Of a stretch of 64,000 nt of DNA, positions 12,680 to 34,962 are shown piece after piece. A program made the translations under genes and the position numbers. Position 1 is the stretch's first letter. Each line of letters opens with the position of its first letter. The notes below the pieces were generated by a model that was not told the origin of the DNA, searched no databases, and saw only the letters and a program-made list of their open reading frames with translations. Origin of the DNA: a virus; IMG/VR virus record IMGVR_UViG_3300020536_000010, positions 15,038 to 79,037 of that record. The stretch is one strand, 5' to 3'.

Positions 12680-15600
12680 ATGTCTACTCCATCTAGTTTG
12701 TATGCCGAAAAAATTTTTTCTGAGCATCCAATAGCGTTCTGGCCCCTTGACGACAAGGCAGATTATGTGTCGCTTATATCCGAAACAAATAGAGATTTGC
12801 GTTTATGGGATACAGACAACGGAACTGTCGAAAACATTACTTCTATATTAGACGAACCATTTTCAGATAGTTTTGTGTCTAGAGTTTCGGCATCATCAGC
12901 AACTGGAGATAATTTTTTTGTTTCTGCAGTTAGCCCAAATTTAATAAATTTTAATGTTTTAAATGAAGATCTTTCTACTTTTGCTATAGGTGCATTTGTT
13001 TATACTAGCAGCTCTTATATTTCTGGATTTGAAATTGGATATCAATATTTTGATGAATCTAGCGGAGAGTTGGTAGAAAAAACAAAATTTTATTCAACTG
13101 AAATAGTTAATAATTGGATTTTTATTTCAGAAACATTCAATATGCCAACAGACAATGTTTCAGCTAGGCTAGTAATTAAGGCTAAATTTTTTAATGGCGA
13201 TAGTCTTTCAAACTATAAATTTTTAGTTAATGGTATATCTTTTGGACAATGGTCTGAAGAGTTCAATGCCTCATCTTTAGGAATTACTCCAGTAGAATTG
13301 CCATCAAACATATTCAATGCTGAAAATATTTTTGGAATTGAGGCAAAAGCCTATGGGTTGCAGGACCTTGACGGCTATTATTTAGTTAGAAAAAATGCAT
13401 TATCTGCTAAAAATTCTGGAATCCCCATGGTTTTTGGGGCCTCAAATAGTACTATAATTCAACAAAGTGGTGGAGCAATTCCATCATTAATAATTCCTGG
13501 TCAAGGATTTTTAAATAATTCTGGCAAATATAAGGATTACACTTTTGAGTTTTGGACTAGAATTAATTGTAACTCAGTAGTAGAAAAAAGAATTTTTGGA
13601 AATATACGTGGAACAGATGGAGTTTATGTTCAGGGATCAACAATAATACTAAAGGTTGGAGATTACCTAATTAGGCACTATGTTGGAGAATGGTATAGGC
13701 CAATGCTAATTCAGATTAGGTATTCTACATCTTCGATTAGTTTATTTATTAATGGAGAACAGGTAGGTGAAACACTTATAAATGTTGATAATGTAGATTT
13801 CCCAGAAAAAAACCAAACAGCAGGAAGCATCATTTTAGATAATGATTGGCTAGGATTTTGGTCATATGACGATGTGGCCCCAATCGAGATTGATGGCATA
13901 GCTATTTATGGATATAGGGTTCCACTTCAGGTAGCTAAAAGAAGATTTGTTTATGGCCAAGGGGTTGAGTTTCCAGAAAATATTAATAATGCTTATAGTG
14001 GAAGTTCCGTCTTTATTGACTATCCATTTTCTAAGTATGCCAAAAACTATCAATATCCATCATTAGGGAAGTGGGTTCAGGGTGCCTATGACAACTTGGC
14101 TATTAATGGAAATGCGATTGAATTTCCACAATACTCTGCCCCAGAAGCGAAGTTTAGCAATAAAACAAGCTCTGAGTGGATTATAGATTTGGAAAATGCA
14201 CAAAATGAAATTAATGATAACTTTATTAAGTTTAGGCCAAATAGTAGTTGGGATTCAACCAATGGCCAGCTATTTTTTGAAAATTTTAATTTAGCTAATG
14301 AGCAGCTAAAAGCTTTTTATATTATTTGTAAAGAGATTTCAACGCCAACTACAGAACAAACGCTGATTGCAATTGAGAATAGGGCAACTGGAAATGTTTT
14401 CGAAATAACCCTAGACAGTGATAGCATTAACTATAAGTTGTGGGAAAATGGAAACTATTCATTATTATTATCAAAATCTAGACAATACTTAAATGGTGTT
14501 GGGGAAAAAGCAGTTATTGGAATAGATCTCCAAAAATTCTCCAGCTACTACGGTGAAAAGATCGCAGACTTTTTTGGAAAACTAACCACAATGTCTATTT
14601 ACGTTGGCTCAACTAAAAATTTATCAAATACATTTTTAGGTAATATATATGAAATTGGTTTTTGTTCATTAAAGAATTTATCTAAAATTTCTTCTATTTT
14701 TGCTGCCGATGGCCTAAGCTTTGCTGACACATTCATTGACGGCTCTGAGCTATATACAAATACGGCAGATGCTGGAGAAGACGTTCAAGAGTCTGCTATT
14801 TTTCAATTCTTATATGACGGTGGAACTCTTGGCCAATACTCATATTCTATTTTAGAAAATCACATACCTAGCTACGGAGTAATTGCAGGAGAAGATTTAT
14901 CTGGATTTGGGATATTGGTTGAGGCAGACTCATCTTGGCAAGATCAAATCCCTCTATCATTTTTTGCTAAAGAAACTACTGATTCACGTGGAGACTCAAG
15001 GCTTGATCTAGATTTTATCCAATTTAATATTAATTATCCAGCACCATCTATTTTTGTTCAGGAAACAGAAGAGGGTTCGTGGACATATGCAGAGCTACAG
15101 TCTGAATATGCCAATCCAATACAAAGAACCTATGATTCTTTAGATAATCAGCTTTTTACTGGTTTTCAAAATTATGAAGATTTAAAAAATAAATCTGTAA
15201 GCACCTATAAATACGACACCCTAAATTCTATAGTAAAAACATACATAACATTTCAATTGCTTGAAAATGGGGCTAATAGATCACTATCTACATTTACAAA
15301 TACAGAGCTTGCACCTAAAAATGGAATTGTTGTACCTGGGTCAAACTGGATAAACACAAAGTATGAGGTTGTTGATAATATGATAATTTATCCACCCCAG
15401 TCAATTTCCTTTAATAATCTTGCTATTGTTACTCATATTGAAATATCTTCTAGAAATATTAAAAATACTCCAATTTCTATTAAGTCCCTAGAGTATGCAT
15501 CCATGGCACTTTCTGACACCATGCCAACATCCATTGGGACTAGATTTGGTAATGACATTTATCCATATAGAAAAGAAGGGTTCTATCTTACATATAAAAA

Positions 15601-16384
15601 ACAAAATCCATTCTCTATTTATAAGGGAAGCACTCCCTATTTATATTTAACTAGAAATAGTGGAATAACCATAAGGGGCGGATATGACCCATTGATAAAT
15701 AGGGGTATTTCCATACCACTAAATAATTCAAAATCAGATAATTTTAAAGTTATAGCAATGCAAATGGCATTAAGGTTTGACGAAGACTTTTTTCCATATG
15801 GGGCAATGCAGCTTTTCGAGATTCAGAGTAAAAACTCTTACATTCGTGTATATGCTGCTGCAAGTGATCCATCTGGAAAACGTGCAAAACTATACGCTAT
15901 TAATTCTAGGGGAGAGTTAGAAAATGGAATAGCGTTTTACCTAAATGGAAAAATTGTAAAGGATCCAGTTTTAACCATAAAGGAGTGGGCAATGCTTGGT
16001 ATAAGATTTGCAAATATTCAAGAATTTTCTAATTTTGCTGGGGCACTTAGGCTAACCGCACCACTGACATATAATAATATTTCTTATTACAAATCAACTA
16101 ATCTTCAAGAGGTTCAAAATGAGATTACAAGGCCTTGGTTTAAGGTTAAAAACCTTGGCTCATTAACTCTAGATTGGGGCTTCTGGCCATCATATCTTTG
16201 GGATGGCGTTTTGTTTATAGCAAAAACTAGCTATTATGGAGTAGACCCATCAGACATATATAAGATATATACAGGAACAAATAAAATAATTATTGATGAT
16301 GAAATAGAGTCTGTGTTTGGAGATTACCAATATTCAGTCAAAGAAAACATAGAGTGGCGTTCTCAGGTATACCAGGCAGTATAA
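12680..16384 (+). CDS. Large virion structural protein, possibly with LamG/concanavalin-like domains
   Basis: 1234 aa, beta-rich. N-terminal PIAFWPLDD and YTFEFW...LFINGEQVG...IDGIAIY patterns are LamG-like. Lies next to the head genes. Confidence 0.55.
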   Translation: MSTPSSLYAEKIFSEHPIAFWPLDDKADYVSLISETNRDLRLWDTDNGTVENITSILDEPFSDSFVSRVSASSATGDNFFVSAVSPNLINFNVLNEDLSTFAIGAFVYTSSSYISGFEIGYQYFDESSGELVEKTKFYSTEIVNNWIFISETFNMPTDNVSARLVIKAKFFNGDSLSNYKFLVNGISFGQWSEEFNASSLGITPVELPSNIFNAENIFGIEAKAYGLQDLDGYYLVRKNALSAKNSGIPMVFGASNSTIIQQSGGAIPSLIIPGQGFLNNSGKYKDYTFEFWTRINCNSVVEKRIFGNIRGTDGVYVQGSTIILKVGDYLIRHYVGEWYRPMLIQIRYSTSSISLFINGEQVGETLINVDNVDFPEKNQTAGSIILDNDWLGFWSYDDVAPIEIDGIAIYGYRVPLQVAKRRFVYGQGVEFPENINNAYSGSSVFIDYPFSKYAKNYQYPSLGKWVQGAYDNLAINGNAIEFPQYSAPEAKFSNKTSSEWIIDLENAQNEINDNFIKFRPNSSWDSTNGQLFFENFNLANEQLKAFYIICKEISTPTTEQTLIAIENRATGNVFEITLDSDSINYKLWENGNYSLLLSKSRQYLNGVGEKAVIGIDLQKFSSYYGEKIADFFGKLTTMSIYVGSTKNLSNTFLGNIYEIGFCSLKNLSKISSIFAADGLSFADTFIDGSELYTNTADAGEDVQESAIFQFLYDGGTLGQYSYSILENHIPSYGVIAGEDLSGFGILVEADSSWQDQIPLSFFAKETTDSRGDSRLDLDFIQFNINYPAPSIFVQETEEGSWTYAELQSEYANPIQRTYDSLDNQLFTGFQNYEDLKNKSVSTYKYDTLNSIVKTYITFQLLENGANRSLSTFTNTELAPKNGIVVPGSNWINTKYEVVDNMIIYPPQSISFNNLAIVTHIEISSRNIKNTPISIKSLEYASMALSDTMPTSIGTRFGNDIYPYRKEGFYLTYKKQNPFSIYKGSTPYLYLTRNSGITIRGGYDPLINRGISIPLNNSKSDNFKVIAMQMALRFDEDFFPYGAMQLFEIQSKNSYIRVYAAASDPSGKRAKLYAINSRGELENGIAFYLNGKIVKDPVLTIKEWAMLGIRFANIQEFSNFAGALRLTAPLTYNNISYYKSTNLQEVQNEITRPWFKVKNLGSLTLDWGFWPSYLWDGVLFIAKTSYYGVDPSDIYKIYTGTNKIIIDDEIESVFGDYQYSVKENIEWRSQVYQAV

Positions 16385-24832: not shown

Positions 24833-24871
24833 AACTGCCCTAGCAATTGGTTGCTGGGGCAGTTTACTTTT
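24833..24871 (+). terminator. Rho-independent terminator after the tail tube gene
   Basis: AACTGCCCTAGCAA-TTGG-TTGCTGGGGCAGTT hairpin followed by TACTTTT. Confidence 0.8.
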
Positions 24872-24879
24872 GGTATAAT
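24871..24879 (+). promoter_or_regulatory. Extended -10 promoter, leaderless transcript
   Basis: TGGTATAAT, with ATG 24886 six nt downstream. Confidence 0.6.
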
Positions 24880-24885
24880 AGTATG

Positions 24886-25581
24886 ATGGCCACTAGAGTG
24901 TATGAAACAGCAATTATCAAGCTAATAGATGGCACTCTAATTGAAATATCCCCATTAAAAATTAAATATTTAAGACAATTTATGGATGCCTTTGAGTTTG
25001 TAAAAACTGCCAAAGATGACGACGAGGCCATATTTTTTCTTTCTGAATGTGCAAGGCTTTGCATGCAACAGTATTATCCATTAATAAAAACAATATCTGA
25101 GTTAGAAGATAATATTGATTTAAAGACTATTTATAAAATTATTGATATTGCAGCTGGGGTAAAAATTCAAAAAGAAAGCAATAAAGAAGTTAAAGATCAA
25201 GCAATTAGTAGTGGGGCAGATTGGTCTGGGCTAGATCTTGTTAAGCTAGAGGCTGAGGTATTTTTAACTGGTATTTGGAAAAATTATGAAGAAATGGAAG
25301 CAAGCATTTCGATGCCAGAACTAACGTCTATCTTAGAAACAAAAAGAGAGCTTGAGTATAATGAAAAAAAGTTTTTTGCAGCAATACAAGGAGTTGATTT
25401 AGATAAGCAAACAGGAAAGTCTGATTCAAATGCTTGGGAAAAACTTAAGGCAAAAGTGTTTAGCAAAGGAAAGACTAGCGATCCAAATGACATAATTTCC
25501 CTTCAGGGGGATGCTGCCAAAAGGGCTGGGTTTGGTATTGGTATGGGTCTGGGGTATGAAGATTTAACCAAAAAAACATAG
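24886..25581 (+). CDS. Tail assembly chaperone, long (GT-like) form
   Basis: Between tail tube and tape measure genes. The N-terminal ~90 aa align by eye with the 25632 protein, followed by an extra C-terminal domain. Confidence 0.65.
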   Translation: MATRVYETAIIKLIDGTLIEISPLKIKYLRQFMDAFEFVKTAKDDDEAIFFLSECARLCMQQYYPLIKTISELEDNIDLKTIYKIIDIAAGVKIQKESNKEVKDQAISSGADWSGLDLVKLEAEVFLTGIWKNYEEMEASISMPELTSILETKRELEYNEKKFFAAIQGVDLDKQTGKSDSNAWEKLKAKVFSKGKTSDPNDIISLQGDAAKRAGFGIGMGLGYEDLTKKT

Positions 25582-25631: not shown

Positions 25632-25943
25632 ATGGCAATTACCGTAAGCGAAGAAAAAACAATTAAACTATTAGATGGACAGGAAATTACAATTAGGCCT
25701 TTGAAGGTTTCCCTTCTAAGACCATTTTTGAAAAAGTTCCAAGCTATCCAGGATGTTGCAGAAGACAATGAGAAGTCAATGGATCTTTTGCTAGAGTGTG
25801 TCCAGATTGCTATGCAGCAATTTAAACCAGAGCTAGCTGAGGACATCAAGGCACTAGAAGAGGTTTTGGACCTTCCAACAGTCTATAAGATTGTTGAAGA
25901 GGCATCTGGAAACTCAACTATTTTTGGTGCATTAAACAAGTAA
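25632..25943 (+). CDS. Tail assembly chaperone, short (G-like) form
   Basis: 103 aa, strong RBS GGGAGG, immediately upstream of the tape measure gene. Confidence 0.65.
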   Translation: MAITVSEEKTIKLLDGQEITIRPLKVSLLRPFLKKFQAIQDVAEDNEKSMDLLLECVQIAMQQFKPELAEDIKALEEVLDLPTVYKIVEEASGNSTIFGALNK

Positions 25944-25974: not shown

Positions 25975-28900
25975 ATGGCTGATGATATTAGATCTGACAT
26001 TAGAATTGGTGTCGATACGTCCCAGGCTATTGCAGAAATTAAGCAGCTGCAAAGACAAATATCTCAGCTAAATACTCAGCTAATCAAAAGTGGTGCCCAG
26101 CAGGCACAATCTGCACAAAATATTCAAAGAGATTTAATTAAAAATATTAATTCTACTGGAAAGTTTGCAGCAAATGTAAGAACAATTTCTACAACGGCAG
26201 AATCATTTACAACTGCTCTTGAAAGAAATAAACTCTCTATGGGGGAGTATTTTAGATATGCTGGTGCCTCTACAAAAACATTTGGCAGATTATTCAAAAA
26301 TGAATTTGCCACTATTGAAAAAGTTGCTCGTGAAAGAGTAAAAACTCTTCAGACTCAGTATATAAAGCTAGGTCGTGACGCTAATGGTGCTATGAAGGCC
26401 ATTTCGGTACGACCTTTAGCTTTAGATATGGAAAGCCTTGCAACCAAAACAGCTCTTGCAGCTCAAAGGCAGCAATTATTTAATCAACTTCTTAAGCAAG
26501 GCTCTACAAATCTTTTAAATTTTGGTAAAAATACCCAGTGGGCTGGTCGTCAGCTTATGGTTGGTTTTTCTATTCCACTTGCTTATATGGGTGCAGCTGC
26601 TGCTAGAGAATTTAGAAAAATAGAAGAACAAGCCATTAGATTCAAGCGTGTTTATGGAGATGCTTTTTCAACTCAAGCAGAAACAGACAAAGCTTTAGAA
26701 AACATGAAACAGCTTGCAGATGAATTTACAAAATACGGTATTGAAGTAAATAAAACTTTAGAGTTAGCAGCCGATGTTGCCCAGATGGGTCTTAAGGGTG
26801 CAGATTTACGTGCACAGGTAACAGAGGCTACTAGGCTTGCAGTCCTTGGTGAGGTAGAACAGCAAGAGGCTATGGCAGCTACAATTTCTGTTACAAATGC
26901 ATTTGGAACAGCAGCAGAAGACCTGGCTGAAAAAATAAACTTTTTAAACGCAGTTGAAAACGAAACCGTGACTGCAATTCAAGATTTAACTATTGCTATT
27001 CCAAAAGCTGGTCCAGTAGTTAAGCAGCTGGGTGGAGATGTGGAAGACTTGGCATTCTTCCTAACAGCCATGAAAGAGGGCGGCATTAATGCATCAGAAG
27101 GTGCTAACGCACTAAAGTCTGGTCTTGCATCTTTAATTAATCCAACCGATAAAGCAGCAGCGATGCTTCAAGGATTTGGAATTAATCTTAGACAAATTGT
27201 TGAAGTGAATAAAGGAAATGTTACTGGCATTGTTATTGACTTTGCTAAAGCACTTGATACCCTAGATCCACTTAGCCGTGCAAGAGCTATAGAGCAGTTA
27301 TTTGGAAAATTCCAGTTTTCTAGGCTCTCAACGTTGTTTCAGAATGTTGTAAAAGAAGGAACTCAGGCATCAAAAGTTTTGGCACTAGCTAGCAAAGATG
27401 CTGGGGAGTTGGCCATTATTGCAGAACGAGAATTAAAGCGTGTTGAAGAGTCCCCATTATTTAAGTTTCAAAAACAACTTGAAAAATTCCAGGCTGCACT
27501 AGCCCCATTAGGAGAGCAATTTTTAAAGGCAATAACACCATTGCTTGAGTTTGGAACGGATGTTCTTAAAAACTTTAATAATATGAGCGAAGGGGCTAAA
27601 CAGTTTGCAGTAATAGCAGCTACAGTTGTGGCAGGTATAGGTCCAGTATTTTTGATGATGTTTGGTCTTATTGCTAATGGTGCTGCAAACATTATTAAGC
27701 TTTTTGCCAATTTAGCAAGAATATTTACTGGAGTTGGAAAAAACTCTAAAGACTTGGGCATATCAACAGAATATATGACCCAGCAGCAACTAGAAGCTGC
27801 AGCTGTAGCAGCATCTCTTAATCAAACACACTCTAAGTTAATTCAAACATTTACTTCTGAGGCGGCAGCTATAGATAAGTTAGCAATTTCATATGGTAAA
27901 GCAATTCTTCAGCAGTCCAGACTTCTCGGTGTTGATCCAGTGACTGGAGTGCCACTTGGTGCTGGTCCAAAAGCAAGACCGCCTAAAAAATTAGCAAGGG
28001 GAATTGTTTCTGTTCCAGGTCCAAAAGGTGCAGGGGACGTTGTCCCAGCCATGCTATCTCCTGGAGAAGCAGTTATTCCAACCAAACAATCACAAAAATA
28101 TGCTGGTTTAATCCAGGGTATGATAGATGACAATATTCCTGGATATAGTGTTGGTCGTAATCCATTTGCAGGATTATTAAGAAAAAATCAAAATAATCCA
28201 ATTGGAACAGTTTTAAACTTTATTTTGGGCAGAGGAAAATCACTTACAGAATACGAAGGGATGGCAGCTCGTAGATTTTTAAGGTCTCGTCCAAATATTG
28301 CAGTAAGAATGCCAATGGATAAGTTTAGTGAGCTTGCTTCTACCCCAGGCCAAAGATATAAGAGTCTTTTTGAAACAGGTTTTAGTAAAGCAGGAGATAC
28401 CACAGCTAAAAGAGCACAGGCAGAGGCAAAGATTTTTGGTCTTCCAGAAAATATTGATCCATCAATGCGTCCAGTTTATGGGTACTTATATAAAAAAGAA
28501 AGAGGGCTTTATGATCCAAGACTTCCACTTAGGACAAGATTAGCTAATAAGCTTTTTGGAAGGGCTGGGTCATCAACACGTGGCAGTGAGTTAAGACATA
28601 TATTTGGTTCTACTGGATCACTAATGAATCCAAAAACATTTAATTATGGCAATATTGCTATGCTTTTAAACAAGAGAAAAGTTGGAAAGCGTACAACATT
28701 TACTTTTGGAGACAGCTATCAGTCTCGCAATAATGAGTATGCAACGCCAGCACCTTTTGGCACATTAAGTGCAAGAAAAATAAAAGGTGCTTACACATCA
28801 AAGGATAAAGACTTCTTTGAGGCCCAGATTATGGGAGGATTTACTCTAAAAGATGTTAGAAGAATTGTTGCTACAGAACCAGCTCTAATTCCACAAATTC

Positions 28901-31900
28901 AAAGAATATTGCAGGCCAATGGACTTAAAATTCCAGTAGGAATGCCAAGATTTTCCATGATGCAAAGACTTCAAAAGCTAGTTTATGGTAAAAAAATGTA
29001 TGAAGAAAGACTTCCATTTACAGCCAAATATGGTCCAAAGGCTGGCAAATATACGATGCCACCAGTTAAAATTGGAAATAGAAGGGTTTGGCTAAATAAT
29101 AGTTCTAGTGACGGCTTAGTTGGCACTGCTGTTAAAGACCAAACACAATCTAAAGCAAGAAGAGATCCACCATTATATTTTGATAAAAGCACATACTTGA
29201 CGGCGGCTCATATGGAGCAGGCTGGGGTGTTAGGACAAAATCGCCAAGATTTTGAAAGAACTATGCGAATGCATTTGGCAGATATGCGTAGAACTGGATT
29301 TATTAGTCAGGCAGAAGAAAGGCAGGCACAATCTAAGTTAGTTAATCTATTAGATACCTATCAGACAAAACAAAAAGCAGAAGTTTTTGCTAGCTATAGA
29401 GACAAGGTTGAATTTTTACCAAAAACTCTTAATCCAGAATTTGATACAACAAAAATACCTATTAAAGAATACATGAAAGATTTTTCTAGAATGCCAAAAG
29501 GATTAATAGGTTCTGGGATTTTGACAAGGATTCCTGATGATGCCAATATCCCAAATAAAGTATTAAGAAGATATATTTTAACCTATAGAAAATCAGTGTT
29601 ATCTTCAATAAAAGCACAAATGAATGCTGGAGCAACAGAATTAACAAATGAATCAATGTACCCAGCTTTCCAGGCAGCTGAACGCAAAGCTGAAATGTCA
29701 ATTAAAGATCCAGGCATGAGAAGGCTTATACAACGAATTAATATGGAAAGCAATTTCCCAATGACAATTGGTTACAATAAAGCAGGCGGCTCTGGATACT
29801 CAAGAGGAAGCTCAATTCTTAAAGAAAAATCTTATCAAAAGTTATTGCAAAAATTAAGAGAAAGAGGGGACTCAAGGCTTGAAGCTATTTTCCCAGGAAT
29901 TCTAGATAAGGTTGACAAATATTATGTAAGTCAATCTAATATACAGGTTCCTAGAGATATGAAGGGGCAAATACAGCAATATATAGCAAATATGCCTGGA
30001 GGCAGAAATCAAAGAATTGCTACCTTAAATCAACTAATAGAAGATCTTCGTGGACTAACTCCATCACAAAAAAGAGATGTGCTTAATAGGTTTATTTCTG
30101 GTCCAGTTCCTGATATAAAGCCAAAGACTAGTCTGCCATATCCAGTAAAGACACCTGTAGAAAGAAAAAAGGTAAGTCCAAAAAATTCATTTACAAATAT
30201 AGACGATATAACTTCTCAAGCTTTTCTTCGCCGTAAAGGATTTTCTGTTGGATCACTAACAAGGATGCTATTGCCACTAATAGGACTTGCTGGCATTGCA
30301 CAATTGTTCGGATCTAGTGGAGTTCTTAAAGCAGCAAACGGTGTGTTTTCAGTTCCAGGGCCAAAGGGTGCAGGCGACATAGTCCCTGCAATGCTTTCTC
30401 CAGGGGAATCAGTAATTCCTGCTAGACAATCAGCTAAATATGCCCCATTAGTTCAAGCAATGATTAATGATAGCGTACCTGGATATAACGATGGTTTGCC
30501 TCCAAGTGTTGCAGCTAAAATGGGATTTAGAACACCAGCAGATGTTAATATTGCTAATTCACAAGAACTTGCAAAACAAACTGCAAAGGCAGGCGTATCG
30601 GAAAATCTTAAAAAAGCTGGAGCATTTGTTTCTAAAGTTGCCAAATCAACTGGGCAAAGGGCTATTGCTGCAGCTAACAATTCTCCAGTTTTAGCAGCTT
30701 GGGCAGCAAAAACTTTTGGCAATGATATTGCAACTACTGGAGGAAGAACTTTTGAAGCAGGTACTGGTGCAGAAATAAGGACAGATAAGCGTGGTATACA
30801 ATATGGGTACATTCCTGGTCAGGGAAGAGTTTCTGTAGAGACTGCAAGAACAGCACAGGCAAATGTCAACCAAGCTGCAGCCCCAAGAATGCCTGGTGCT
30901 GGAGCTGGCATGGGCCTTTCTGTGCTTGGTATGGGTGCAATGGCATATGGAATGTCTGGACAGCCAGGTTCTCAAATAGCTGGGGCACTCTCCATGCCAT
31001 TAATGCTAGCCCCTATGCTTTTGCCAATGCTTGCAAATCCAATTGGCAAAGTCATCGCTGTTCTTGCATTATTTGCTGGAGCTATGTTCTTCTTACAAGA
31101 ACAACTAAAAAATGCTCGCAAAGAAGGAATAAAAACTGCAGAGGCAATGACTATGACTGCAGAAAAACTACAAAAGATTTCTGAATTTTCTGGCAAGGTC
31201 ACTGCGTCTGAACTAGCAGAGCGAAAGAGAGAAGATCAATTAACTGGTCAAGGATCTATAAAACGTCAATTTGGTCAAACATTTTTAGAATCAGACATTG
31301 GCAAACAAATGCTAGCAGATGTTTCAAATATGCCTGGCAATAGAGCATCAAATATAGCCAATCAATTATCTTATGCAGTTCTTCAGGGTGCATTATCTCA
31401 ACAGCAGGCAGCAAGCATTGGTGCCGCACTTAGTACTGAATTAAAAGATTTTTCAATTACAACAAAAGTAACAGGTCAACTAGCTGCTTTATTTGGACCA
31501 AATGGTCAAAATTTACTAAAAGATCCTCTAGAAATTGCAATTGCTATCCAAGAGCAATCTGGCAGAGAGCAAGAAAAGTCCTATGAAAATGCAATTCAAA
31601 AAATAGAAGATAATGCAGCTATACATGGTGGAACTATTGGAAACTTAATTGGCGGCGGCATTATGACTGCCGCTGGTGCAGTTATGGTTGCCACAGGATT
31701 CCTTGCACCATTAGGTCTTGCAATTAGTGCAGCTGGAATAGGAACTATGGTTGCATCTGGAATTAATGAGGGGGTTGCAGATGGGATTGAAAATGCAAAA
31801 GCTGCAGCTATTGCAATTATTGCTGGAACAGAGCAGATTCGACAAAATCAAGGGCTGCTGGATTCAGTAGAAAGTAGATATAATACCCAAATTGATGAAC

Positions 31901-34900
31901 TAGAAGCTAAAAAAGAATCTGCAAAAACAGATAAAGAACGTTTAGAAATAGAAGATAAAATAAATTCTAAAATTATAGAAAGAGATAATGCCCTTGTAAA
32001 GCTTAAAGGGAAAAATGATGAAATTTATAATAATTTAATAAAACAAGCCAAACAATTAGGCCCAGAAAATTTTCAAGCAACATTTGAGCAAGCTTTAGAT
32101 TATAGAGCAGAAAATGCTCCACAAATAGTTAAAGATCAACTTGAAATTGCAAAGTCAGCACTAAAGGGGATGGAAGACAGTGATTTTAAAATTAGCTTAC
32201 AGCTTGGGCTATTGTCTGAAGAATTTGATGCAACCACAGTTACTAATTTAATTAATTTAAATAAAGAGTCCAATGGAGAGATTGAGAAAAGCTTTAAGTT
32301 ACTTGTAAGAGCAGAAGGAACTGCAAAAGCCAACCAGCTTATGCAAATTTTAAGCTCCTCCAACCTAACAGCAACAGAGGTTGATGTAATAATGAATTAT
32401 ACAATGTCTAATAAACAAGATTTTGATACTGATTTAGAAGCTATTTCTCAGATTGTCGGAATGGCTGGAGAGTATGGTCTTGTTGTTAAGCCAACAGTAG
32501 AAAACATAGAAGAAGTCGGAAAATTTATTAAGGAAACAGAGAATTTAGATACTGGTAAGCCAATTACAAGAAAAATACTTACTCAGTATCTAAAAGAGGG
32601 TGAGGGGGCAGACGGAAAGCCACTTAGTGCAAAGGCAATAGAAGAGCTTCAATATATGTTGGATAATTGGGATGTTCTTACAAATGGAACGAATAAGCTT
32701 AATTATCAGGTCATGGTCGATTTCTTAATTGGAAATGCTAGCGATGCTGCAATTCAAGCTTTTTATTTAGCAAATAATCCAAAAGAATACGCTAAATTTA
32801 TGGAGGGTGGACCACTTATTAATACCCCAGATGGTCCAGTAGGGTTTATAGATGAAGATGAAAGAGCAAAGATGCGAGCCTATTTCTTTGGACAGGGCAG
32901 CGGCGGCGATAATGATGACCCAGGTGAGGGAACACCCCCTGGTGGAGACACAGGAACCCCAGAAAATGTGCTAAAGCAATATGCAGATAGGTTAAAACGT
33001 ATTCGCAATGCAGCAATTGATACCACAGGAACTGTGGATGAATTAATTAAAAGATTTAATATTTTAATGAAGCCTGGCTCAGCAACATCTACACTTTTCC
33101 GTGGCACTGACCAAAAACTATTATTTGCTGGATATAGCAAACAATTTATTGATGCTGTAATGTCAATGGATGAGGCAACAAGGTCTAAATTTGTATCTAT
33201 TAAAAATGGAATCATAAAGGTTACTCAAGCAGGAAAAGACCTTAATGCTGCCATGTCTGAAATAACACTTGGTGATGCTCAATTTAATATTGCTTCTGGC
33301 GTAGCAGACGTTAGAATGCAAATGCGAGCAATGGAAATATTAACCAAAGACTATGGAATGTCGGCTAAAGAAGCTTTTGAAATGGCCAAAGATGCATCTC
33401 TTGCATATGCAATAGTTACCAGAGGAACATCTGGTGAAATTCAAGATTTAATTAAGTGGACTGAAACACTTAGGCAAGAAAATGAAAAATTTGCAAGGTC
33501 TACCCCAGAAGGAATGCAGGCATTCTTAAGGGGTGAGCTAGATAAGGTTTTAGGGGCATTAGATCTTGCAGATCAATATTTCCAAGCTCAAGAGCAGGCT
33601 GTAGAAAGAGACTTCCAAGACAAGATTGACCCAATTGCAAAATTAATTCGTGCAGCAGAACAAGACATAGTTAATTATCAAGACAAGATTGACGATCTTA
33701 ACTATCAGCTAACATTAATTGAAGATCAAGAAAGCAAAATTAATGATGAATATGATAGAAAGTTAGAAGCTTTAGATAAAATTGAGCGAGCTAATGACTC
33801 TATTGCTGCACAGCAAAAGTCTCAGTTAGCATTAGCAGATGCACTTAGCCAGGGAGATATTTCAGCAGCAGCACGGGCAGTTCAAGAGATTAGATCCCAG
33901 GCAGCATCTGACAGTATTCAGTCACAAAGGAATCTTCTTGAAGAAGATAGACAAAGAAGGCTTGATGCGTTAGCGGTATCACTTAATGGAAAACTTCTCA
34001 CTAGAAAACAGATTGAGGAAGAAATAAAGACATTGCAGTTCGAAATTGCTAAGATTGAAGAACAAAGGCTTGAGCCAAATCAAAAGCTTGTAAGAGAATA
34101 TGAAATACAAAGAGATCTTGCTTTGGAAGCAATTGGTGAAAATGGATACCTTGGAAAGACAAAAGCTGAGTGGGACAAAATTGCAATAGCTGCAAATAAG
34201 GCTACTGTTGAGTCAAAGGCATTTAATGATTCTGTTGTTGCAATTCTGTCATCAATAAAGGGATTTACTTTTGGTCCAGATGGCAAGCTGCTACCATTTA
34301 ATATAGAAGAATTTAAACAAGGTCTAACCCCACCAGAAAGCCCTAGCAGCGAAGAGCCAAATACAAATGAAAATCCTGAAGATAGCATATACACTGGCCC
34401 ATCACGAGAAGAGCTTCGTAAACAACTTGACGCACTTTATATAAAAATTAAAAATGCCGAGGCCTACATAGCTAAAATGAAAAAAGCTGGAAAACGTTTA
34501 GAAGCTGCAAATGCAACAGATAAATTAAATCAATATCTTGCTGAAGAGAAAGCACTGAGGGCACAATTTAATGCAGCTCCTATGGGTGGTTCTGGTGGAG
34601 GTGGTGGTGGTCCAGCCCAAATGATGATGGCTAAAGGTGGTATGGTTCCAAAATATCTAAGAATGGGAGGTCTATTACCATATAAAGCTGAGGGTGGTTC
34701 AATATTTAAGCCATTGGGAACAGACACTATTCCAGCAATGCTTACTCCTGGAGAATTTGTAGTTCGTAAATATGCCGTAGATAAATTTGGCGTAGATAGG
34801 CTAAAGGCCATAAATAGTGGCACATACAAGGGTGACTCAGTGTATAATTATGAGGTAAGTGTTAATGTCCAAACTGACGCAAACCCTGATCAAATTGCCA

Positions 34901-34962
34901 GGGCAGTTATTGGACAAATAAGACAGATTGAGTCCCAAAGAATTAGGGGGAATAGGTTCTAA
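25975..34962 (+). CDS. Tape measure protein with internal cargo domains
   Basis: 2995 aa, largely helical and Ala/Lys-rich. TP901-type core (AMKEGGINASEGANALKSGL), hydrophobic segments, C-terminal GTDTIPAMLTPGEFVV motif; RBS AGGAGGTG. Confidence 0.9.
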   Translation: MADDIRSDIRIGVDTSQAIAEIKQLQRQISQLNTQLIKSGAQQAQSAQNIQRDLIKNINSTGKFAANVRTISTTAESFTTALERNKLSMGEYFRYAGASTKTFGRLFKNEFATIEKVARERVKTLQTQYIKLGRDANGAMKAISVRPLALDMESLATKTALAAQRQQLFNQLLKQGSTNLLNFGKNTQWAGRQLMVGFSIPLAYMGAAAAREFRKIEEQAIRFKRVYGDAFSTQAETDKALENMKQLADEFTKYGIEVNKTLELAADVAQMGLKGADLRAQVTEATRLAVLGEVEQQEAMAATISVTNAFGTAAEDLAEKINFLNAVENETVTAIQDLTIAIPKAGPVVKQLGGDVEDLAFFLTAMKEGGINASEGANALKSGLASLINPTDKAAAMLQGFGINLRQIVEVNKGNVTGIVIDFAKALDTLDPLSRARAIEQLFGKFQFSRLSTLFQNVVKEGTQASKVLALASKDAGELAIIAERELKRVEESPLFKFQKQLEKFQAALAPLGEQFLKAITPLLEFGTDVLKNFNNMSEGAKQFAVIAATVVAGIGPVFLMMFGLIANGAANIIKLFANLARIFTGVGKNSKDLGISTEYMTQQQLEAAAVAASLNQTHSKLIQTFTSEAAAIDKLAISYGKAILQQSRLLGVDPVTGVPLGAGPKARPPKKLARGIVSVPGPKGAGDVVPAMLSPGEAVIPTKQSQKYAGLIQGMIDDNIPGYSVGRNPFAGLLRKNQNNPIGTVLNFILGRGKSLTEYEGMAARRFLRSRPNIAVRMPMDKFSELASTPGQRYKSLFETGFSKAGDTTAKRAQAEAKIFGLPENIDPSMRPVYGYLYKKERGLYDPRLPLRTRLANKLFGRAGSSTRGSELRHIFGSTGSLMNPKTFNYGNIAMLLNKRKVGKRTTFTFGDSYQSRNNEYATPAPFGTLSARKIKGAYTSKDKDFFEAQIMGGFTLKDVRRIVATEPALIPQIQRILQANGLKIPVGMPRFSMMQRLQKLVYGKKMYEERLPFTAKYGPKAGKYTMPPVKIGNRRVWLNNSSSDGLVGTAVKDQTQSKARRDPPLYFDKSTYLTAAHMEQAGVLGQNRQDFERTMRMHLADMRRTGFISQAEERQAQSKLVNLLDTYQTKQKAEVFASYRDKVEFLPKTLNPEFDTTKIPIKEYMKDFSRMPKGLIGSGILTRIPDDANIPNKVLRRYILTYRKSVLSSIKAQMNAGATELTNESMYPAFQAAERKAEMSIKDPGMRRLIQRINMESNFPMTIGYNKAGGSGYSRGSSILKEKSYQKLLQKLRERGDSRLEAIFPGILDKVDKYYVSQSNIQVPRDMKGQIQQYIANMPGGRNQRIATLNQLIEDLRGLTPSQKRDVLNRFISGPVPDIKPKTSLPYPVKTPVERKKVSPKNSFTNIDDITSQAFLRRKGFSVGSLTRMLLPLIGLAGIAQLFGSSGVLKAANGVFSVPGPKGAGDIVPAMLSPGESVIPARQSAKYAPLVQAMINDSVPGYNDGLPPSVAAKMGFRTPADVNIANSQELAKQTAKAGVSENLKKAGAFVSKVAKSTGQRAIAAANNSPVLAAWAAKTFGNDIATTGGRTFEAGTGAEIRTDKRGIQYGYIPGQGRVSVETARTAQANVNQAAAPRMPGAGAGMGLSVLGMGAMAYGMSGQPGSQIAGALSMPLMLAPMLLPMLANPIGKVIAVLALFAGAMFFLQEQLKNARKEGIKTAEAMTMTAEKLQKISEFSGKVTASELAERKREDQLTGQGSIKRQFGQTFLESDIGKQMLADVSNMPGNRASNIANQLSYAVLQGALSQQQAASIGAALSTELKDFSITTKVTGQLAALFGPNGQNLLKDPLEIAIAIQEQSGREQEKSYENAIQKIEDNAAIHGGTIGNLIGGGIMTAAGAVMVATGFLAPLGLAISAAGIGTMVASGINEGVADGIENAKAAAIAIIAGTEQIRQNQGLLDSVESRYNTQIDELEAKKESAKTDKERLEIEDKINSKIIERDNALVKLKGKNDEIYNNLIKQAKQLGPENFQATFEQALDYRAENAPQIVKDQLEIAKSALKGMEDSDFKISLQLGLLSEEFDATTVTNLINLNKESNGEIEKSFKLLVRAEGTAKANQLMQILSSSNLTATEVDVIMNYTMSNKQDFDTDLEAISQIVGMAGEYGLVVKPTVENIEEVGKFIKETENLDTGKPITRKILTQYLKEGEGADGKPLSAKAIEELQYMLDNWDVLTNGTNKLNYQVMVDFLIGNASDAAIQAFYLANNPKEYAKFMEGGPLINTPDGPVGFIDEDERAKMRAYFFGQGSGGDNDDPGEGTPPGGDTGTPENVLKQYADRLKRIRNAAIDTTGTVDELIKRFNILMKPGSATSTLFRGTDQKLLFAGYSKQFIDAVMSMDEATRSKFVSIKNGIIKVTQAGKDLNAAMSEITLGDAQFNIASGVADVRMQMRAMEILTKDYGMSAKEAFEMAKDASLAYAIVTRGTSGEIQDLIKWTETLRQENEKFARSTPEGMQAFLRGELDKVLGALDLADQYFQAQEQAVERDFQDKIDPIAKLIRAAEQDIVNYQDKIDDLNYQLTLIEDQESKINDEYDRKLEALDKIERANDSIAAQQKSQLALADALSQGDISAAARAVQEIRSQAASDSIQSQRNLLEEDRQRRLDALAVSLNGKLLTRKQIEEEIKTLQFEIAKIEEQRLEPNQKLVREYEIQRDLALEAIGENGYLGKTKAEWDKIAIAANKATVESKAFNDSVVAILSSIKGFTFGPDGKLLPFNIEEFKQGLTPPESPSSEEPNTNENPEDSIYTGPSREELRKQLDALYIKIKNAEAYIAKMKKAGKRLEAANATDKLNQYLAEEKALRAQFNAAPMGGSGGGGGGPAQMMMAKGGMVPKYLRMGGLLPYKAEGGSIFKPLGTDTIPAMLTPGEFVVRKYAVDKFGVDRLKAINSGTYKGDSVYNYEVSVNVQTDANPDQIARAVIGQIRQIESQRIRGNRF
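27994..28146 (+). repeat. Direct repeat copy 1 (~50 aa, SVPGPKGAGDVVPAMLSPGE...PGY) inside the tape measure gene
   Basis: Matches 30334-30486 at protein level and partly at DNA level; 2340 nt apart and in frame. Confidence 0.9.
30334..30486 (+). repeat. Direct repeat copy 2 (SVPGPKGAGDIVPAMLSPGE...PGY)
   Basis: See copy 1; a more diverged third copy lies near 34717-34800. Confidence 0.9.

Follow-up and report, generated by a model that had tools for sequence, protein, structure and literature searches.

An exchangeable cassette in a siphovirus tape measure protein holds a SopF/DUF3626-type ADP-ribosyltransferase domain, a candidate injected effector

What does a long basic region, enclosed by two direct repeats, do inside the tape measure protein (TMP) of a phage? 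This question is raised by a 64,000-nucleotide stretch of viral DNA (positions 15,038 to 79,037 of IMG/VR record IMGVR_UViG_3300020536_000010; the whole stretch is referred to here as the window). TMPs carrying cell-wall hydrolases are already known, as are phage heads carrying ADP-ribosyltransferases (ARTs). The original prediction for this locus proposed a cargo in a swappable slot, with a DUF3626-like and tentatively ART-fold domain that is injected into the host, and with the repeats acting as recombination or processing boundaries. Our literature search found no paper describing an ART in a TMP, and the link drawn here between the cassette boundaries and a widespread TMP element is new.

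Results

The cassette and its repeats in a TP901-type TMP

A single open reading frame on the plus strand (25975-34962 of the window) encodes 2,995 aa. Its product is a TP901-type TMP of a siphovirus tail module: it matches PhageMin_Tail over aa 248-444 (88.9 bits, cut-off 33.2) and TIGR01760 (110.7 bits, cut-off 28.8), PHROG TMP families cover aa 10-640, and the gene lies between tail chaperones and distal tail proteins, in the order portal, protease, capsid protein, Ig-domain tail protein, two chaperone-like genes, TMP and minor tail proteins. The 79-kb record is estimated to represent ~70% of the genome, and contigs with this TMP reach 114 kb. The host is an uncultured lake-water bacterium, probably an actinobacterium. 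The features of the gene are as follows.

25975..34962, + strand: TMP gene; open frame with PhageMin_Tail, TIGR01760 and PHROG TMP families
25975..27993, + strand: N-terminal TMP core (aa 1-673), conserved, with a hydrophobic segment at aa 541-579 (hydropathy scan)
27994..28155, + strand: module 1 (aa 674-727), type A; SVPGPKGAGDxVPAMLSPGEAVIP..KY..LI..MI...IPGY
28246..28989, + strand: D1 (aa 758-1005), SopF/DUF3626-type ADP-ribosyltransferase domain by Pfam, profile, AF2 and fold match
29233..29724, + strand: D2 (aa ~1087-1250), helical domain delimited by HMM iteration and alignment
29725..30333, + strand: D3 (aa 1251-1453), orphan; aa 1423-1452 are hydrophobic (hydropathy scan)
30334..30495, + strand: module 2 (aa 1454-1507), type A; 68% identical to module 1
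30976..31767, + strand: two strongly hydrophobic segments (aa 1668-1712 and 1888-1931; hydropathy scan), candidate membrane-inserting parts
34666..34860, + strand: module 3 (aa 2898-2962), type C; GTDTIPAMLTPGEFVV.KYAV..FG.D.LK.INSG

We read this TMP as a conserved chassis, consisting of a TP901-type core at the N-terminus, module 1, hydrophobic segments, the long, acidic and helical ruler, and a module at the C-terminus, into which the cassette and one extra module have been inserted as a unit right behind module 1. Residues 1-725 are 57-65% identical to those of relatives with and without a cassette, and the helical C-terminal part has a pI of 4.9. Within the TMP, the cassette occupies the half nearer the head.

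Two direct repeats of ~50 aa, 780 codons apart, had been noted, and their PAMLSPGE cores indeed begin at aa 691 and 1471; the repeats are 55 aa long, and the outer limits given for them, 27994 and 30486, fall at aa 674 and 1504. Modules 1 and 2 share 40 of 59 aa (68%; BLASTP E 1e-28), and their DNA has a mean column identity of 83% as printed, without a long identical run. A third, diverged copy, module 3, contains a PAMLTPGE variant from aa 2920; the module begins 97 aa, and its core motif 75 aa, ahead of the TMP C-terminus, and it is 42% identical to module 1 over 31 aa (E 1e-5). The region between the repeats (aa 728-1453) is basic and non-TMP-like as described, with a pI of 10.3 and 123 K+R against 61 D+E.

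D1 belongs to or directly borders the SopF/DUF3626 branch

The motifs on which the DUF3626 assignment had been based (IAVR, YKSLFETGFS, RPVYGYL, YGNIAMLL, RTTFTFGDS, FFEAQIMG and TLKDVRRI) are all present in the translation, at aa 773-969, and the assignment was borne out by Pfam, by the relatives of D1 and by a profile match to SopF. Isolated D1 matched PF12294 in two stretches with 26.6 bits (E 3.6e-6), 0.4 bits below the gathering score of 27, and DUF3626 was the sole Pfam family found for it even at E <= 10; the whole TMP reached only 15.7 bits against PF12294. An exhaustive search yielded 415 relatives of D1. DUF3626 was the sole Pfam match in 10 of 10 short relatives (above the cut-off in 6), and 45 of the 48 mid-size relatives matched it at E <= 1e-4, the best E being 1.6e-61.

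A profile of 49 D1 family sequences matched the SopF chains 7DN8/7DN9 (E 6e-9; 6.3e-9 for 7DN8), which represent an ADP-ribosyltransferase (PMC10333799) that has been assigned to DUF3626 (PMC6682159). The RPxY, YG and YxEAxIHG motifs are aligned in this match, with RPVY of D1 on RPIY and YG on YG, and E949, within FFEAQ, falls on the catalytic Glu of SopF, a position occupied by Asp in the sequence of NAD-bound 7DN9. Glu949, encoded by codon 28819-28821, is the putative catalytic residue. The catalytic triad of SopF is 'I-Y-E', with the Glu in YIEAH (PMC10333799), and a residue of RPVY would be equivalent to the triad 'I'. D1 retains the full constellation of R813, E817, R832-P-x-Y835-G836, Y891-G892, R906, D913 and E949; among 101 TMP-embedded copies, conservation is 100% for E949, Y835-G836, Y891-G892, D913, R813 and E817.

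The tentatively proposed ART fold was upheld by an AF2 model of D1 (pLDDT 84.9, pTM 0.83), for which the best Foldseek matches were SopF, DarT and CteC. In VIA-align, the model matched SopF with Z 12.0 (180 aa, 3.9 A) and DarT with Z 11.9 (170 aa, 3.4 A), followed by Tpt1 (8.1), CteC (6.5) and the cholera and pertussis toxins (~4.5); no structure outside the ART superfamily scored above Z 2.2. Such structural scores do not discriminate between SopF, whose substrate is a protein, and DarT, whose substrate is DNA. We conclude that D1 falls within the SopF/DUF3626 branch of the ADP-ribosyltransferase superfamily or lies just outside it.

As for the rest of the cassette, D2 accompanies D1 in ~50 relatives, and most of its AF2 model has a pLDDT of 80-96, which falls to 51-65 over model residues 121-150; no fold match was found for this model. 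For D3, no homologue was found among 255 proteins and 80 loci.

Relatives carry other sequence between the same repeats

Comparison of relatives supported a swappable slot: in relatives with 61-65% identity up to repeat 1, unrelated sequence lies between the same repeats, and homology is regained at repeat 2. Four relatives (P0064, P0048, P0100 and P0065) matched the window TMP over aa 1-725 (49-65% identity) and again from aa 1454, and not between. Cassette-free relatives are ~1,950 aa long; for one of them (L052, 1,953 aa), aa 4-728 of the window TMP aligned with 4-722, and aa 1427-1571 with 632-782. A counterpart of module 1 is found at ~aa 684-705 in nearly all relatives. D1 itself was present in 99 of the 120 retrieved TMPs, in differing places: behind module 1, as the cassette's second domain, close to the C-terminus, or in two copies. 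Homology breakpoints between relatives coincide with repeat edges, and we read the modules as also marking the joints of cassette exchange between phages.

The repeats are copies of a widespread TMP element

A type-B module copy matched 1,364 cultured-phage records and, among the matches listed, almost all were in genes annotated as TMP. In the TMP of mycobacteriophage Aegeus, modules at aa 959 and 1350 flank a match to an NlpC/P60 hydrolase. Cassette-free TMPs still carry modules, at ~aa 684 and near the C-terminus, and both the number and the spacing of copies differ between TMPs. Across 69 diverse module copies, the residues G, D, P, G and E do not vary. By these patterns of conservation, the modules are an old functional TMP element, maintained at the protein level. 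Local duplication as a source of the repeats was rejected, since copies within one TMP (median identity of first versus internal copy, 64%) are no closer than first copies across TMPs (71%).

The TMP of phage JBD30 has a predicted hook at residues 1022-1066 (PMC11445458), and the module profile matched residues 1019-1056 of this protein weakly (E 0.12). The type-B module matched the TMPs of JBD5 and JBD24 with E 4e-6 and 1e-6, the JBD5 match lying 103-140 aa ahead of the C-terminus, about where the JBD30 hook sits, and module 3 of the window TMP has a similar place relative to the protein end; the type A and C copies of the window are linked to this hook solely through the profile. The profile of the 69 copies also matched the Douge TMP twice (E 7e-17), a protein of which solely residues 1658-1699 have been resolved (PMC13033339). 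The modules most likely correspond to this hook, which is predicted for JBD30 as a beta-hairpin plus helix. For the T5 TMP, pb2, no sequence match to the module was found at E <= 10, and for the proposed role of the repeats as processing boundaries, pb2 and the JBD30 hook prediction offer no more than an analogy.

A bolder reading, which we offer tentatively and do not expect to be the right one, is that PAML(S/T)PGE modules might be hub-docking, cleavage-adjacent hooks, and a multi-module TMP a polyprotein that would be cut or released stepwise at infection. If it were true, the tape measure would be a general programmable protein-injection platform, whose slots would carry wall hydrolases (in mycobacteriophages) or cytoplasmic effectors such as SopF-type ADP-ribosyltransferases (in lake phages), and the 1,364 cultured phages with the same element would make the polyprotein idea directly testable.

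Discussion

The best explanation of the locus, which we consider reasonably probable, is a swappable TMP cassette with a SopF-type ART that would be delivered as a host-modifying effector. Each virion would contain a few TMP copies in its tail lumen, compact or unfolded (three, should the protein form trimers like those of T5, JBD30 and Douge). Three folded 28-kDa domains would scarcely find room there, so D1 would have to travel unfolded. On opening of the tail tip, the TMP would be expelled ahead of the DNA and its hydrophobic segments would insert into the membrane; expulsion and membrane insertion of the TMP have been described for T5 (PMC10038345), JBD30 (PMC11445458) and Douge (PMC13033339). 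The basic cassette would then cross the cytoplasmic membrane and, on our assumption, D1 would refold in the cytoplasm. With host NAD+, it might mono-ADP-ribosylate some host molecule while no phage gene is yet expressed, as a tail-borne counterpart of the head-packaged Alt of T4. A protein is the mildly favored target; DNA or RNA, as for DarT, is a lesser but sizeable option. DUF3626 domains have been fused independently to other proteins annotated as virion components, namely Phage_Mu_F (8 cases), minor capsid protein 2 (2 cases) and portal (1 case), and one BFVD match is named 'minor capsid protein'. Points that count against this explanation are the D1 score just under the Pfam cut-off, the tight fit in the lumen, the head-proximal place of the cassette together with the lack of NAD+ outside the cytoplasmic membrane, the dependence of SopF on a eukaryotic ARF GTPase, and a record (~70% complete) in which no macrodomain or ADP-ribosylhydrolase was found.

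One alternative, in effect a variant of this explanation with a different target, is that D1 acts like DarT and ADP-ribosylates DNA (or RNA), for example host ssDNA to halt replication, or the incoming phage DNA end. DarT structures matched D1 as well (Z 11.9, 11.4 and 11.3, versus 12.0 for SopF), the strongly basic character of D1 (pI 10.6) would fit such an activity, and the TMP exits the tail beside the DNA end (PMC13033339). Sequence profiles nevertheless put D1 in DUF3626/SopF: the Pfam scan gave no DarT family for it at E <= 10, and among PDB sequences (E <= 1) its profile found SopF and no DarT chain. We therefore regard DarT-like activity as possible but rather unlikely. It is more doubtful still that the cassette is not injected and works in the producing cell or in tail assembly, for instance by modifying a late phage or host protein, or is a catalytically silent spacer or plug. 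In its favor, delivery of the cassette to the cytoplasm is presumed, the tail lumen is a poor fit for a folded domain and many relatives do without a cassette. Against it, a spacer would not need residues at catalytic positions that are invariant in 101 copies, and the same domain family is repeatedly fused to annotated virion components (MuF, minor capsid protein, portal). Moreover, the module-bounded slot of Aegeus holds a match to a wall hydrolase, which would be able to act solely on the infected cell, and TM4 provides a precedent for a TMP hydrolase (PMC1796659).

That the repeats are mere recombination scars or DNA-level joints without protein function would agree with the breakpoints at repeat edges and with the varying copy number and spacing. 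We hold this to be very improbable, given the protein-level conservation with G, D, P, G and E invariant in 69 copies, the occurrence of the element in 1,364 cultured-phage records of many hosts and in cassette-free TMPs, and the window copies having no long identical DNA run.

If a SopF-type enzyme indeed resides in the tail ruler, part of the TMP would reach the cytoplasm and act before any phage gene is expressed; the finding thus bears on the fate of the TMP after ejection. That one slot houses different cargos across hundreds of related TMPs suggests that early host takeover or anti-defence functions are delivered by a natural, modular system, and Mycobacterium and Gordonia phages would be a tractable system for studying module docking, cutting and cargo release. 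DUF3626 also gains a bacterial-host context beyond SopF, its single eukaryote-directed example.

Comparison with known systems

SopF, a Salmonella T3SS effector (PF12294), belongs to the same family as D1 by profile (E 6e-9) and is its top structural match (Z 12.0), and both proteins have the RPxY, YG and YxEAxIxG motifs, including the Glu at the catalytic position. SopF is delivered into the target cell by an injection device, as is presumed for D1. However, SopF is a free 374-aa bacterial effector in animal cells, where it modifies Gln124 of ATP6V0C, whereas D1 is embedded within a phage TMP and has to work inside a bacterial cell. SopF further requires a eukaryotic ARF GTPase activator, its residues 1-110 have no counterpart in the structural alignment with D1, and sequence identity in that alignment is 16-18%.

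DarT toxins of DarTG (PDB 7OMY, 7YK3 and 8BAQ) match the fold of D1 with Z 11.9-8.7. Like D1, they are small basic ARTs of the same superfamily branch, and they act inside bacteria; fold alone is shared, with no sequence-profile relation detectable. DarT modifies ssDNA bases and pairs with a macrodomain antitoxin, whereas in the 79-kb phage record (~70% complete) we found no macrodomain or ADP-ribosylhydrolase to protect the producing cell.

With respect to the hooks, the T5 docking segment lies immediately ahead of the site at which maturation cleavage releases the enzymatic fragment. In JBD30 and Douge the hook is absent from the solved structures, and of the three copies in the window TMP, two are internal. 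A TMP-like carrier with exchangeable domains, loaded in a tail-like tube, is also known from the Sle1-type, TMP-related effectors of actinobacterial contractile injection systems (PMC13277306). These, however, serve as cargos of a contractile nanomachine and have their variable domain C-terminally, and the accessible part of that paper reports no module repeats or ART domains.

NAD+ is absent outside the cytoplasmic membrane. An NAD-dependent transferase has to enter the cytoplasm, whereas the cargos of TM4 and T5 act on the cell wall outside it. Like D1, these are enzymes embedded in a TMP: a peptidoglycan-hydrolase motif in TM4 (PMC1796659), and the muralytic domain of T5 pb2, which is carried to the host (PMC10038345). 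The hydrolase match in the Aegeus TMP is flanked by the same module as the window cassette. T4 Alt and the MuF-VIP2 fusions of actinobacteriophages resemble D1 in placing a ready-made ART in the particle, and Alt acts before phage gene expression (PMC7302621; PMC7824862). They travel in the head rather than in the tail ruler and are of the Alt or VIP2/ADPrib_exo_Tox type rather than the SopF type; yet DUF3626 domains, too, occur fused to MuF-like proteins, as VIP2 does.

A repeat-bounded cassette in the tape measure protein

The cassette lies within the product of the following gene of the window.

25975-34962, + strand: tape measure protein (TMP) gene, a single frame of 2,995 codons

Upstream of this gene lie those for the portal, maturation protease, capsid protein and an Ig-domain tail protein, plus two that are chaperone-like; downstream are minor tail proteins. 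Its product matches PHROG tape-measure families over aa 10-640 and, at aa 234-557, both PhageMin_Tail (88.9 bits) and TIGR01760 (110.7 bits). We therefore identify it as a siphovirus TMP. The IMG/VR record is a 79-kb fragment, ∼70% complete, and contigs encoding this TMP reach 114 kb; the nearest cultured phages are Streptomyces phages of 120-134 kb, with 41% identity in the capsid protein and 28% in the TMP core. Upstream of the TMP gene, the adjacent genes 24847-25581 and 25632-25943 both match phrog_10504, the longer one (24847-25581) having an additional C-terminal part that matches phrog_10474; the pair looks like the tail chaperones G/GT encoded as two genes, without a frameshift. Directly upstream of the portal, an open reading frame at 12680-16384 (1,234 aa) had no PHROG match at E ≤ 0.001.

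The string PAMLSPGE starts at aa 691 and again at aa 1471, a separation of exactly 780 codons, and its variant PAMLTPGE starts at aa 2920. The surrounding 55-aa repeats 1 and 2 (modules 1 and 2, aa 674-727 and 1454-1507) are 68% identical (E 1e-28); DNA comparison revealed no long identical run between them. The 726 residues that they enclose (the cassette, aa 728-1453) have a pI of 10.3, compared with 4.9 in the helical C-terminal part of the protein. The repeat and cassette observation is thereby confirmed: the original prediction had described two direct repeats at this very spacing around a basic region, and every motif string that it cited was located in the TMP translation. An NCBIfam scan of the cassette and repeats returned no families.

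The first cassette domain is of DUF3626 type, with an ADP-ribosyltransferase fold

When aa 728-1010 were scanned alone, the only Pfam family found was DUF3626 (E 3.6e-6, 26.6 bits against a cut-off of 27). HMMER, run exhaustively over 1.84 billion representatives, yielded 415 relatives of this first domain, D1 (aa 758-1005). DUF3626 was the sole Pfam match in all 10 short relatives, above the cut-off in 6 of them, and was matched at E ≤ 1e-4 in 45 of 48 mid-size ones. Salmonella's DUF3626 protein is SopF (PMC6682159), an ADP-ribosyltransferase (ART) with an I-Y-E triad, whose structures with ARF1, with and without NAD, are PDB 7DN8/7DN9 (PMC10333799). A single-sequence comparison of the cassette with PDB sequences yielded noise only. 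A profile built from 49 D1 sequences matched these entries at E 6e-9. In the profile alignment, E949 of the window TMP is aligned with the SopF Glu at whose position the NAD-bound entry has Asp.

The AlphaFold model of D1 (pLDDT 84.9, pTM 0.83) was closest to SopF (Z 12.0, 180 aa, 3.9 Å) and DarT (Z 11.9, 170 aa, 3.4 Å), followed by Tpt1, CteC, CopC and the cholera and pertussis toxins; no structure beyond the ART superfamily matched above Z 2.2. R, E, RPxYG, YG, RTT, GDS and YxEAQIxGG are invariant or nearly so in the 49-sequence alignment, and R813, E817, Y835, G836, Y891, G892, D913 and E949 are conserved in all 101 TMP-embedded copies of D1. Given the Pfam result, the relatives, the SopF profile match, the model comparisons and the conserved residues, the placement of D1 in the DUF3626 family, or immediately beside it, and its ART fold are established, and we strongly infer the predicted catalysis. 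A DUF3626 signature had originally been proposed, and tentatively an ART fold; HMM and Foldseek searches with this region returned just these, DUF3626 and ART-superfamily structures. No blastn or tblastn match to D1 or the cassette was obtained among 50,697 phage records, so that no cultured phage with a TMP-embedded D1 is detectable at that sensitivity.

The cassette occupies a variable slot

Using aa 660-1520 as query, we retrieved 960 TMPs of 1,650-5,240 aa. Among the 120 of these that were listed, the first module is nearly always located at aa 680-705 and the last one ∼75 aa short of the C-terminus, with 0-3 further modules between them at a spacing of ∼240-840 aa. Of the 120 listed, a sample skewed towards D1 by the choice of query, 99 contain D1. 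Its position varies: it may lie right behind module 1, second within the cassette or near the C-terminus, or be duplicated, with two copies each in P0005, P0007 and P0053. In the 3,862-aa TMP of locus L047 (IMGVR_UViG_3300042397_000091), D1 is found at aa 2751-2999; the modules on either side are one of type B (aa 2297) and the C-terminal one (aa 3786).

Over aa 1-725, four relatives (P0064, P0048, P0100 and P0065) share 49-65% identity with the window TMP. Their alignment to it restarts at aa 1454 and also within its C-terminal third, but the stretch from module to module shows no match except for the modules themselves. Many of the 341 IMG/VR relatives (1,930-2,700 aa) have their sole modules at ∼aa 684 and at the C-terminus. 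In the alignment with the 1,953-aa TMP of locus L052, window residues 4-728 pair with 4-722 and 1427-1571 with 632-782, indicating that the window TMP is a simple TMP plus an inserted unit of cassette plus module. The suggested swappable slot is thus supported by relatives with unrelated sequence between the modules and by others without the cassette, and across relatives the inter-repeat region was neither invariant nor helical TMP sequence.

The remainder of the cassette

D2, a helical domain at ∼aa 1087-1250, carries the conserved motifs FD.S..L..HM and P.GLFGSGIL.RLP.NHGI and is present in ∼50 relatives, after D1, before D1 or alone in a module-bounded cassette. Where the short query was mixed with full-length TMPs, the first 55-100 alignment columns were misaligned; the first 76 residues were disregarded in the D2 fold prediction. 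Its pLDDT was mostly 80-96, falling to 51-65 at model residues 121-150. Fold matches stayed at the noise level for helical proteins (best Foldseek E 0.55, Z 6.4), the ESM Atlas gave nothing usable for D2 or the orphan region D3 (best 0.78), and scans of IMG/VR and JGI metagenomes to enlarge the D2 alignment added no loci.

29725-30333, + strand: D3, aa 1251-1453, no homologue among 255 proteins plus 80 loci

A hydrophobic stretch peculiar to this phage (aa 1423-1452) forms the end of D3. At the D1/D2 joint (∼29041-29124; TMP aa ∼1023-1050), the segment AGKYTMPPVKIGNRRVWLNN aligns with complete modules of the form 'MLAPGEAVIPAKQSAKY', which stand between D1 and D2 in three related loci (L003, L005 and L009), and may represent a module that has decayed.

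Nature and origin of the module

Across 69 diverse module copies, G, D, P, G and E are invariant. Three subtypes can be distinguished: A (first and internal), B (GPGTGTSDSIPAMLSNGEYV) and C (C-terminal). A type-B copy matched 1,364 cultured-phage records, including those of phages of Mycobacterium (505), Gordonia (343), Pseudomonas (198) and Vibrio (94), and nearly all of the matches listed fall within TMP-annotated genes. A cultured phage with two copies is Mycobacterium phage Aegeus.

L081:1684-6588: Aegeus TMP (1,634 aa), modules at aa 959 and 1350

Between both modules, this TMP has an NlpC/P60 match (aa 1216-1248; 24.9 bits, cut-off 23), so the arrangement of module, enzyme, module is present in cultured phages too, with a cell-wall hydrolase as cargo. 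The TMP of mycobacteriophage TM4 reportedly also contains a motif of the cell-wall hydrolase class. A search of the literature for the motif strings found no published mention.

Median identity between first and internal modules of the same TMP was 64%, no closer than that between first modules across TMPs (71%), and we therefore rejected a recent intragenic duplication and regard the repeats as old paralogues. A T5-like hydrophobic segment ahead of each internal module was likewise rejected, as only 3% of 155 have one within 60 aa upstream.

The 69-copy profile matched two stretches of the TMP of mycobacteriophage Douge, aa 964-1013 and 1411-1472 (E 7e-17), and, weakly, the JBD30 TMP at aa 1019-1056 (E 0.12). 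A type-B copy matched the JBD5 TMP 103-140 aa from its C-terminal end, a position similar to that of the hook predicted in JBD30. This hook, JBD30 residues 1022-1066, would comprise two helices together with a beta-hairpin; by analogy with T5, it was proposed to retain the TMP in the baseplate once the C-terminal part has been released and cleaved off (PMC11445458). In T5, the last 43 residues of pb2* are docked between subunits of the hub, and a maturation cut after R1127 parts the docking residues from the muralytic fragment (PMC10038345). The modules might serve as comparable docking or cleavage elements; this is an analogy and not a result, since no sequence match between module and T5 was found and the Douge TMP is resolved only at residues 1658-1699. 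The C-terminal 130 aa of the window TMP had no match in the PDB.

Predicted carriage of enzymes by virions and comparison with known systems

Among 48 mid-size homologues, DUF3626 is fused to Phage_Mu_F (8), Phage_min_cap2 (2) and portal (1) domains; these fusions to MuF-like proteins, minor capsid protein 2 and portal arose independently. Outside TMPs, in P0127 and other homologues, further partners are an additional ART, of ADPrib_exo_Tox type (3), and LigT/2',5'-RNA-ligase domains (2). Several phage proteins in BFVD likewise show a DUF3626-like fold, among them one called "minor capsid protein". The 79-kb record, a ∼70%-complete fragment, gave no match to any macrodomain or ADP-ribosylhydrolase family. 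In relatives, peptidoglycan-binding domains (PG_binding_1 and CW_7; LysM in others) lie directly before the C-terminal module.

P0021, aa 2677-2732: peptidoglycan-binding domain
P0009, aa 2930-2965: peptidoglycan-binding domain

Such domains fit with a Gram-positive host and with the TMP tip being the first to meet the wall.

The original interpretation of the cassette, a putatively injected effector in an exchangeable slot, is largely supported, the effector being a predicted ART with protein or nucleic acid as candidate target. We found no published link between a TMP and an ART or DUF3626 in the literature. The window TMP falls within two known themes, TMP-embedded enzymes and virion-delivered ADP-ribosyltransferases. 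The classical packaged ART is T4 Alt (PMC7824862), and MuF-ART fusions of actinobacteriophages are predicted virion components (PMC7302621); by analogy, a TMP-borne D1 would fit the same logic, the enzyme being there at the moment of entry. Actinobacterial contractile injection systems, according to a 2026 report (PMC13277306), have TMP-related effectors with exchangeable functional domains; they represent a related concept in a different machine.
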